Shown here: in pieces, positions 34,311-37,300 of the stretch
How the letters are laid out: each line of letters opens with the position of its first letter
How positions within the stretch are numbered: the first letter of the stretch is position 1
Assembly: GCA_013239625.1 (NCBI GenBank)
Contig: MU053588.1
Span: 2,490,508-2,554,507 of the forward strand
DNA length: 64,000 bases
DNA from: Lama guanicoe
Lineage: Eukaryota
Reading direction: 5' to 3'
Position numbers and translations under genes: made by a program
Notes under the pieces: model-generated
What the model saw: the letters and a program-made list of their open reading frames with translations, nothing else
Database searches by the model: none
Told to the model about the DNA's origin: nothing

Positions 34311-37300
34311 ATGGACAGCCCGTGCCAGCCACAGCCCCTGAGTCAGGCTCTCTCTCAGTTGCCGGGTTCAGTGACAGAGCCCTTGGAGCCTAGCCGGGCC
34401 AGGATGGGGGTGGAGAGTTATCTGCCCTGTCCCCTGCTGTCCTACCACTGTCCAGGAGCGCCTGGTGAGGCCTCGGCGGGGAGTGGGACCCCCAGAGCCA
34501 CAGTTACTTCCACCACAGCCAGCCCCCTGCCAGAGGGCTTTGGTGGGCAGGATGGCGGGGAGCTGCGGCCACTGCAGAGTGAGGGTGCTGCGGCGCTGGT
34601 CACCAAGGAGTGCCAGCGACTGGCAGCCCAGGGCGCCCGGCCTGAGGCTCCCAAACGGAAATGGGCAGAGGATGGTGGGGATGCCCCTGCACCCAGCAAG
34701 CGGCCCTGGGCCAGGCAGGAGAACCAAGAGGCGGAGGCAGAAGGGGAGGGCTGCAGCAGTGGCAATGGTGAGGGCAGCGCTGGGCTGAGGGAGGAGGTGC
34801 TGCCCTCTGCTCCTGAGCGCCTGGCCCTGGACTATATTGTGCCCTGCATGCGGTACTATGGCATCTGCGTCAAGGACAACTTTCTGGGGGCGGCACTGGG
34901 CAGCCGCGTGCTGGCGGAGGTGGAGGCCCTGAAGCGGGGAGGGCGCCTGCGTGATGGGCAGCTAGTGAGCCAGCGGGCTATCCCGCCACGCAGCATCCGT
35001 GGGGACCAGATTGCCTGGGTGGAAGGCCATGAGCCGGGCTGCCGAAGCATCGGTGCCCTCATGGCCCATGTGGATGCTGTAATCCGCCACTGTGCTGGGA
35101 GGCTGGGCAGCTACGTCATCAACGGGCGCACCAAGGTGAGGCTGCAGGGACCTGGTGTGGGGGTGTCGGGGGTGGGGTAGGGGGCTGCCCAGCACTTGTT
35201 TGTTGGGTGCTTGGTCTCTTGAGCACCAGTGGGTTCGGAGACAGGCTTCTGAGGTCACAAAGGGGTTTAGGCAGCTCCAGTGGAGGGGGTGTTGGAGTTC
35301 AATGTGGGCTCTCATTCCCTGTGAGTCTTAATTTGTGCACCTGTAAACCATGGGTTTGACCTGTAGTCATAGTTGGTTCTTCACCTTGCCAGGAATCCTC
35401 TTGAAGAACCTGAGAAGACGTGCTGACATTCATGGCTCCACACCTGTGCATGGGTCATGGTGTAGTTCCCAGCTCCCTGATGTCTGTGCATGGGTCCTAG
35501 ACCAAGGGTGGTCAGTTTAGACAGGCACATGTTTCTGCCTCCGTCTGTCCATCTGCACCTGTCTGTCCTTGTCTTCATTCTCCCTTGTTTCCTTATCTTT
35601 TGATCCATACCTGTCTTTTCCATCCTATCCACTATCTGTCTCTGGACTGTCCATTCTGTCTCCCAGGCAGGAGAACCAGGAGGTGAAGGGTGGCCATGGG
35701 GAGGCGGATGCCAGGCAGCGGGAGGAGGCACTGGTGCTGAGATGCATTGTTCACTGTATGCCATACTCTGGCATTTGCATTAAGGACAGCTTCTTGGGGG
35801 TGGCCGTGTGCTAGCCCAGGTGAAAGTCACGTCTTCATCTTTCTTGACCCTCCCTGCCCTAGTTCTTGCCCTCCATCTTTCCTTTTCTGCCTATCCCTTC
35901 ATCCTTGTCTGTTTCTGATCTGTTTCCTTGACTCTCTGCCTTTGTGTTTCTTCTTGGCCCGTTTCTCTTGCTTTAGAGTAGTGTTATTAATCTCTTTTTG
36001 GAACCTGGGTTTTTTTTTTTGAAAATCTGCCAAAAACTACAGACCTTCTCTTAAGAAAAATGCTCATTTGATCGGTGTTCTTGGGCAGTCATCAGGACCT
36101 TCTGGGTCTCCAGCAGCCCATTCGAGAACCTGGGATCAGGAGCCCTACACAAGACAATAGTCCATAGGGCCTTTTTGGTCTGCTGAAATGTTAATTCTTT
36201 TCGTGTAGGGTGTAGGCCCTGGCCTTAAGTCCAAGGTTTGGTGATTTTTGGACAAGACCCTGTAGGGAGTGCCCACCGCACAGCACCAGTGATGCCTGGC
36301 TGACGGCACAGACTGTGTTCTGCCCTGCGGGCATGAGGCTGTGCTGCTGCTGTCCCCTCCCTCCTTCCTCTCCCTCAGATCCCATCTCGGGTGCTGCCTC
36401 TGTGCAGCTTCTGTCTCAGGCTGAAGCTGGCTCAGAGACCAGGGCTCCCCCGGGGCCGAGGCCAGTATCCTCCCCACCCCAGTTGGAACTTGTCCTACTT
36501 CCTTCTGCCTCCTGTTACTTGATAGCTGGAGAGCCAGGGGCAGGAGAGAGCAGTGAGAATCTCTCTGGCCACAAGGTGCTCAGCACCTTCTCCCCAGGGT
36601 CACCAATCCTCACAGGAGGGAGATGGAGGGGAGACCACAAGATTGGCCCAGGGCAGGATACTTCTCTGAGCCTCTCTTGGCTCATCCACAGGATTGGAAA
36701 ACCAGGTTAAGTCCCCAGCTAGTCTGTGGCCATTTTAAGAGGGGAGAGGAGGGAGCAGATCTCTTTAGCTTTGGTGCCTCTGATGTGGCTGGGAATGGGC
36801 CCTGGAGGGAGGGGGTGGGGGTTGGGACTTTTTTAGCCCTGGGAGGTAGGAACAAGCCTGGCTGGACTGAGAAGGGAGAGGAGGAGCCAACCCAGTCACT
36901 GGAGTTCCTCTCAGACCCTCCCCTGCCCCAGTGAGACAGCAACTTCAGGCTTCCCCACCTTTACAGGGCAACATATGGGCTTCCTCCCCAGGCTCTGGAG
37001 TAAGACGGTGTGGGGTGCTGAGGTGGGGGACCACGGTGGTGGTGGTGGCACGGATTCCCCATGTGGCTGCGGCCCGTAACAACCTGCCTCTGGGTCTTCC
37101 CTGGATGCAGCTTATGTGTTCTGCCTTTGCTCCTCCCCTTAGTTCCTCTGCTTAGTCGACCTGCAGGTGGGAGGGAATTGACTCCCACTGGCATCAACGA
37201 CCACCATATGGGACCCCAGGAGGCCCTTTTAAAAGCAGTTTGGAGGTGGGGTCTGCTGTCATTGGCTCAGTCCTGAGATTCTGACTTGGGGGTATGCTTG

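Follow-up and report, generated by a model that had tools for sequence, protein, structure and literature searches.

Unannotated intronic sequences with same-strand homology to one of the gene's own exons are described in human, where 4,027 merged targets of this type are listed and some have expression support (Ivanov and Pervouchine 2022, PMC9013439). Internal gene duplication can also activate latent splice sites, as described for intron gain by tandem genomic duplication (PMC3443670). A third type of system is E1', a cryptic VHL exon, which introduces a stop on inclusion, leads to nonsense-mediated decay (NMD) and is linked to erythrocytosis (PMC8871608).

The locus described here is a decayed copy of part of EGLN2 (PHD1) exon 2, found in the intron that directly follows this exon in Lama guanicoe. 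With good confidence, the copy is a neutrally decayed fossil pseudoexon that is skipped by normal splicing and most likely inert. Similarly to the tandem exon duplications of PMC9013439, it is intronic, unannotated and has its homologous exon within the same gene and on the same strand, but it differs from the cases presented there in that it represents an internal part of an exon and has no real splice sites; its identity of 74% is below the 80% group for which that study reports a coverage excess, and EGLN2 is absent from the main text of the study. The copy shares with the route outlined in PMC3443670 that copied coding sequence brings AG and GT letters resembling splice sites into a new setting, while it departs from this route by residing in an existing intron. 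VHL E1' provides a model of how a poison exon would act at this locus, being a cryptic intronic exon of a HIF-pathway gene. VHL E1' differs from the copy in that its transcripts have been detected, respond to NMD and are linked to variants found in patients, and it is not described as a copy of a VHL exon in the portions of PMC8871608 drawn on here. Literature listings returned no paper on both EGLN2 and a poison exon, and no description of the copy or of this EGLN2 intron.

EGLN2 is on the + strand of the window, the whole stretch of 64,000 nucleotides that was analysed. The first coding exon encodes 275 residues that are 100% identical to Vicugna pacos EGLN2; it is numbered exon 2 on account of an upstream exon at ~33021-33112 that is marked by a retrocopy of the gene (see below). 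The features of the locus are as follows:

34075..35135, + strand: EGLN2 first coding exon (exon 2), from translation and splice sites, with ATG at 34311 and the phase-0 donor AAG|GTGAGG
34711..34928, + strand: source segment of the copy (ARQENQE...LAEVEA), from pairwise alignment, with latent CCAG|GCAG| and GAG|GTGGAG letters
35525..35664, + strand: pyrimidine-rich, AG-free tract of 140 nt upstream of the copy, ending exactly at the first AG
35663..35828, + strand: the decayed copy itself, at 74% identity to 34711-34928 and lacking stretches of 21, 21 and 10 nt
35665-66 and 35669-70, + strand: two acceptor-like AGs, inherited from parent codons
35781..35783, + strand: TAA, met via the first AG (153-nt exon)
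35812..35814, + strand: TAG, met via the second AG (149-nt exon); the 10-nt deletion ahead of it puts it out of the homologous frame
35817..35825, + strand: CAG|GTGAAA, resembling a donor; its homologue in the parent is GAG|GTGGAG, from which the GT is inherited
35829..35974, + strand: downstream flank, rich in pyrimidines and including a run of 112 nt free of AG
39279..39398, + strand: EGLN2 exon 3 (AMVACYP...HVD...WDVK), to which the exon 2 donor is normally spliced

Several other observations concern the gene and its surroundings. No stop interrupts the EGLN2 frame ahead of its ATG (window 34203-34310), and the N-terminus is extended through this region in several mammalian models (P0225, P0251, P0308); an out-of-frame ATG is located at 34261, upstream of the EGLN2 start. 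Gene models P0046 (Felis) and P0064 (Pteropus) have internal deletions in exon 2, one of which starts where the copied segment has its 5' end; these deletions look like template-switch artefacts or exitrons. Downstream of EGLN2, cytochrome P450-like coding remnants with a stop in one aligned frame are present on the - strand (window ~42800-43200) and are presumably a CYP2T gene or pseudogene.

The copy begins 528 bp past the exon 2 donor at 35135. Pairwise alignment of parent 34711-34928 to 35663-35828 pairs 166 bases, of which 123 are identical and 43 differ, and contains three gaps (21, 21 and 10 nt). When the exon is searched against the window, blastn returns a 59-bp segment with 78% identity (E 2e-7) and a 27-bp segment with 89% identity (E 1e-3), and tblastn finds 29 of 62 residues identical at the copy (E 2e-8). 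The local alignment score of 94.4 compares to a mean of 25.7 and a maximum of 35.2 over 300 shuffles and to a maximum of 37.6 over 27 other pieces of the window on both strands, while the HOXD70 score of 4594 compares to a maximum of 1868 over 500 dinucleotide shuffles. The homology of exon and copy is far above chance, and the duplication of ~34711-34915 into the intron, as proposed in a first-pass annotation of this DNA, is borne out. Searches of the organism's own genome, which skip simple repeats, matched a single place with the copy and likewise a single place with its 3' flank. Located within the parent gene, in the intron directly after its source exon and on the same strand, the copy is an intragenic partial exon duplication and not a dispersed repeat.

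Only an internal segment of the exon was copied, without the start codon region and without the real splice sites. A mutually exclusive duplicated exon, defined as a whole exon with its own splice sites and the same phase that could stand in for the parent, is not what is found, and the copy has deletions and a frameshift in addition. The AGs at 35665-66 and 35669-70 and the CAG|GTGAAA at 35820 are positioned as the first-pass annotation placed them; its view that the copy is bracketed by splice sites does not hold, as the copy extends past the "donor" and the AGs and GT are inherited letters of copied codons, not newly built. The matching parent letters are CCAG|GCAG| at 34711-18 and GAG|GTGGAG at 34917-25. 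Splice-site strength was judged by eye; on this basis, TTCTGTCTCCCAG|G at the first AG matches an acceptor well and the real donors of EGLN2 are not all strong either.

The first AG leads to the TAA and the second to the TAG, again as claimed. The homologous frame, however, does not stay open until the TAG as had been stated: the 10-nt deletion at 35802/35803 shifts the frame ahead of the TAG, and the homologous frame reads R-V-L-A-Q-V across the TAG bases (R-V-L-A-E-V in the parent). No stop codon occurs in the 53 homologous codons of the copy, and the two larger deletions (21 nt each) are multiples of three. By the 50-nt rule of NMD, a premature stop is recognized when it lies >50 nt upstream of a later junction. 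Both AG routes present a premature stop at this distance (TAA 35781 or TAG 35812), upstream of exons 3-5 and later junctions.

The 140-nt AG-free run is the longest of its intron and the fourth longest on the + strand of the window, and has an orthologous counterpart in feliforms and in the primate-like protein P0018. The long pyrimidine tract that had been noted before the copy is present, and the downstream flank is equally pyrimidine-rich. The flanks have no significant alignment to intron 1 or to the flanks of the source (3 + 9 comparisons, P 0.07-0.97). A comparison of the upstream with the downstream flank gave no sign of a target-site duplication or tandem flanks (P 0.29). No poly(A) or shared flank was found at the breakpoints of the copy, marks that decay at its age, and an exon-exon junction cannot show in a retroposed fragment of this kind because the source lies inside one exon. 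The simplest origin, we infer, is that a segment templated nearby was inserted into a CT-rich tract, a route that is indistinguishable from a larger tandem duplication eroded by deletion. A search of the intron for structured RNA gave one chance Rfam match outside the copy (E 0.58, far below threshold).

Another non-functional EGLN2 derivative is present in the same genome. This processed retrocopy (L003; G000:C1724, ~4.2025-4.2043 Mb, - strand) has exons 1-6 joined and is identical to EGLN2 at 1265 of 1365 bases (92.7%). Unlike the copy, it is intronless, represents the whole transcript, resides on another contig, lacks the deletions and is much younger, with a Jukes-Cantor divergence from the parent of 0.077 versus 0.32 for the copy (~fourfold). 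The retrocopy would predate the camel-llama split, because the dromedary protein P0078, which appears to be its orthologue, carries several of its diagnostic residues (compared by eye). A Camelus ferus protein, P0037, has the MWYYSIC residues of the retrocopy and may be a chimeric model. The retrocopy was rejected as the source of the copy, since it is without the deletions and no closer (119 vs 123 identities); EGLN1 and EGLN3 were rejected as sources on finding the EGLN2 RQENQE linker in the copy. The copy further retains ancestral states that are gone from the parent, such as KDSFLG, the common mammalian reading.

Orthologous intron DNA is exposed by proteins whose translation continues past exon 2 into the intron. 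In P0008 (Panthera uncia), P0121 (Felis catus) and P0049 (98.6% to Felis), the copy follows the orthologous tract; the tail of P0049 matches camelid 35580-35855 (E 3e-14), and the first deletion of the camelid copy is common to P0008 and P0049. As read from these proteins, feliform carnivores have the copy at the same place in the intron. The primate-like P0018, whose nearest matches are Saguinus and Macaca, aligns along 157 intron codons and ends in PGRRT at the start of the copy, thus covering its first five codons at the orthologous position, and the copy is probably shared with primates. All of this cross-order evidence comes from proteins of three feliform lineages and one primate-like record and is blind to synonymous change. 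The duplication would precede the split of Laurasiatheria and Euarchontoglires, because the five codons are at the orthologous position in P0018, and would follow the origin of the eutherian RQENQE linker, because the marsupial and monotreme proteins examined are without it. Its likely timing is the stem of the eutherians or shortly afterwards, ahead of the boreoeutherian split of ~90-95 million years ago. The old partial exon duplication suggested at first is, in this sense, datable and common to feliform carnivores and probably primates. Among 383 candidates, a search with the P0008 tail recovered only P0008 and P0049. The peptide of the copy had one candidate and no match in a protein collection limited to longer proteins, a weak test, and a metagenome scan for mammalian EGLN2 loci gave 595 pattern matches of which 0 were confirmed.

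The feliform proteins also bear on whether the copy was maintained. In a frameshift-aware alignment, the frames of the copy relative to the parent are 1,0,0,1,2,2 in P0008 and 2,0,0,2,0,0 in P0049, and the second 21-nt and the 10-nt deletions of the camelid copy are absent from both. At the donor-like site, the residues indicate a change of G to A in these two feliforms, P0008 having D (GAY) over parent GGT and P0049 having M (ATG) over parent GTG, so that the GT would read AT/AC. The TAG position would read TGG in P0008, judging by its G over parent AGC. The minimum nucleotide difference per site to the camelid sequence is 0.139 (5' intron), 0.156 (tract), 0.158 (copy) and 0.200 (3' flank) for P0008 and 0.188, 0.158, 0.185 and 0.222, respectively, for P0049, where the 3' flank values are slightly above those of the copy and derive from 10 and 27 codons only. 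The corresponding values are 0.167 for the copy and 0.152 for the upstream intron in P0121, and 0.219 for the tract and 0.232 for the upstream intron in P0018. The copy thus appears to diverge from carnivores like the upstream intron (0.16-0.19 vs 0.14-0.19 per site). By this protein-level proxy, applied to three feliform records and one primate-like record, conservation of the exon and its flanks does not exceed that of neutral intron. Of the splice sites, the donor is likewise not conserved across species, and the acceptor AG is, as far as protein can show, compatible with conservation. The first-pass annotation had held that neutral divergence, unconserved splice sites and no inclusion reads would mark an inert relic; on the first two, as far as these can be tested, the copy diverges like its neighbouring intron and its donor is lost in feliforms and weaker in a related species.

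Changes on a shorter time scale are seen in run X1, from a related organism, which differs from the copy at 35742 (as does X17), 35760, 35806 and 35823; all four of these recent differences are non-synonymous in the homologous frame. Compared to the parent over 53 codons, 20.2 of the differences in the copy count as synonymous and 22.8 as non-synonymous, with a dN/dS of 0.21 versus 0.71 for the retrocopy. Its synonymous share is 0.47 versus a neutral mean of 0.35-0.44 in simulations of a neutral copy beside a constrained parent. With the branch length that fits best (0.2), four models give this excess P values of 0.13, 0.16, 0.048 and 0.17; with a longer branch length (0.25), one model gives 0.008. 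The excess is mild, a hint and not a result. The 43 differences fit ~0.2 substitutions per site of neutral decay. Under neutrality, the probability of encountering no stop in the copy is 0.2-0.55.

The use of the intron in transcripts was surveyed in 350 EGLN-family proteins of all clades, including gene calls from raw contigs. Exon 2 is joined to exon 3 in 162 of these; the rest read into the intron (116), skip exon 3 (35), skip to the last exon (6), are without the exon 2 end (17) or have an insert (14). A splice from exon 2 to the copy is found in 0 of the 14 inserts, two late additions to the survey having been checked by motif only. This absence is modest evidence against use, because stop-bearing isoforms are under-annotated as proteins. 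Part of 35630-35860 is contained in 20 of 24 run rows, none of which is on record as RNA, which speaks neither for nor against expression. Four runs were compared over 35160-36660. X2 yielded no contig there, and the X6 contig ends at 35628, ahead of the copy. X1 (35620-35972) and X17 (35286-35862) each have a contig that passes through both candidate sites unspliced, with no joint or loose end at the copy; these runs may be DNA, and their contigs are no proof against inclusion. The intron after exon 2 does yield lineage-specific cryptic exons, one with a stop, and the copy is not among them.

The cryptic exons of other mammals map to several places in the camelid intron. Window 35368-35511 is orthologous to a 49-codon, in-frame cassette exon of cattle EGLN2 isoforms X1/X2 (P0129-P0131; shorter in P0132); the cattle exon maps to camelid 35377-35505, where the frame is open, and 35368-35511 is a better candidate for an alternative exon than the copy. 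Window 37418-37486 is orthologous to an 18-codon exon of the hippopotamus isoform P0006 (mapped to 37420-37485), with camelid CAG|ATGAGT at the donor position beside a (CA)n run. An insert of the right whale, which has the stop, corresponds to camelid 36408-36551 and one of the tamarin to 38166-38249. The armadillo insert P0029 is probably camelid 36575-36667 (E 0.004) and has a second, weak match to the copy (7/15, E 0.007). A consensus-like donor, CCT|GTGAGT, occurs 185 bp into the intron (window 35320-35326), and the feliform read-through proteins jump from ~35320-35326 to ~35560, which is most simply a genomic deletion of ~250 bp, or splicing.

The history proposed for an inert, neutrally decayed copy is as follows. 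Likely in an early placental ancestor, ~220 bases of EGLN2 exon 2 would have been copied on the same strand ~950 bases downstream into the next intron. The copy would have landed behind a pyrimidine tract, where an inherited AG resembles an acceptor by accident, and would have decayed neutrally since then. Rare inclusion in camelids would introduce a stop before the HxD motif, with NMD predicted as the fate of such splicing noise. Features that weigh against inertness are the mild synonymous excess, the length of the AG-free tract and the well-kept 5' end of the copy, whose first 20 bases are unchanged from the ancestor inferred with the retrocopy, a pattern spotted after the fact.

It is unlikely that the acceptor half alone has a function, with the tract and first AG acting as a 3' splice site, cryptic or decoy, that is conserved, or opening an alternative last exon. 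Some exon 2 splicing would then be diverted or delayed, while the donor and frame would be free to decay. Such a role would suit an AG-free tract that ends exactly at the first AG and the good match of the acceptor, and cryptic exons spliced from the same donor are annotated in several mammals. The first codons of the copy are kept in the camelid, P0008 and P0018, including PGRRT at its start in the two latter proteins. The tract, however, diverges like the upstream intron (0.156-0.158 vs 0.139-0.188; P0018 0.219 vs 0.232), and P0049 and the cat record P0121 have changes just after the first AG. The downstream flank is equally AG-poor, the intron after exon 2 is without AATAAA or ATTAAA, and cattle models instead use the exon ~150 bp upstream. 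A bolder form of this scheme, and a more doubtful one, would have a lasting cryptic 3' splice site siphon a fraction of exon 2 splicing into RNA that yields no product across boreoeutherians, a poison cassette completed in camelids, and a human orthologue that is similar to VHL E1' and in which deep-intronic variants lower PHD1.

The first-pass annotation raised the possibility of exaptation as a poison or alternative exon controlling PHD1 dosage, which is not supported. A regulated poison cassette (149/153 nt) that lowers PHD1 via NMD is highly improbable and would apply only as a gain of the camelid lineage, where both AG routes of this genome do reach a premature stop upstream of further junctions. 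The donor +4 position is A in the copy and G in the parent and X1, a step towards consensus, and weak donors are not foreign to EGLN2. Against such a cassette, the GT is lost in two feliforms, the stop and deletions are lineage-specific, and the related organism has a weaker donor, CAG|GTGGAA, through the X1 difference at 35823, which matches the parent's +4 G and could reflect RNA editing. Excess conservation is not seen, divergence is intron-like, and no such isoform is annotated among the 350 family proteins; the copy fails two of the poison-exon features tested and passes one.

That the copy was briefly translated at an early stage as an in-frame duplicated exon and later lost its function, being inert today, is just as improbable, for although its dN/dS of 0.21 (borderline in one of four models), stop-free homologous codons and larger deletions in multiples of three would fit a coding phase, P is >0.1 in three of four models, neutrality readily leaves the frame without a stop, the feliform copies are frameshifted, and a second copy of part of the start of the catalytic domain would be unlikely to fold usefully.

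As a fossil, the copy matters little, because by the account in PMC9013439 the human genome has thousands of exon copies in introns. It nonetheless shows, cleanly and in a case that can be dated, that AG and GT letters come ready-made with copied coding sequence, and it may serve as a shared derived marker for placental clades. PHD1 transcription is reported not to depend on oxygen (PMC2928329). Were the acceptor in use, it would constitute an extra splicing route controlling PHD1, and the intron would be a place to seek deep-intronic variants in unexplained erythrocytosis.
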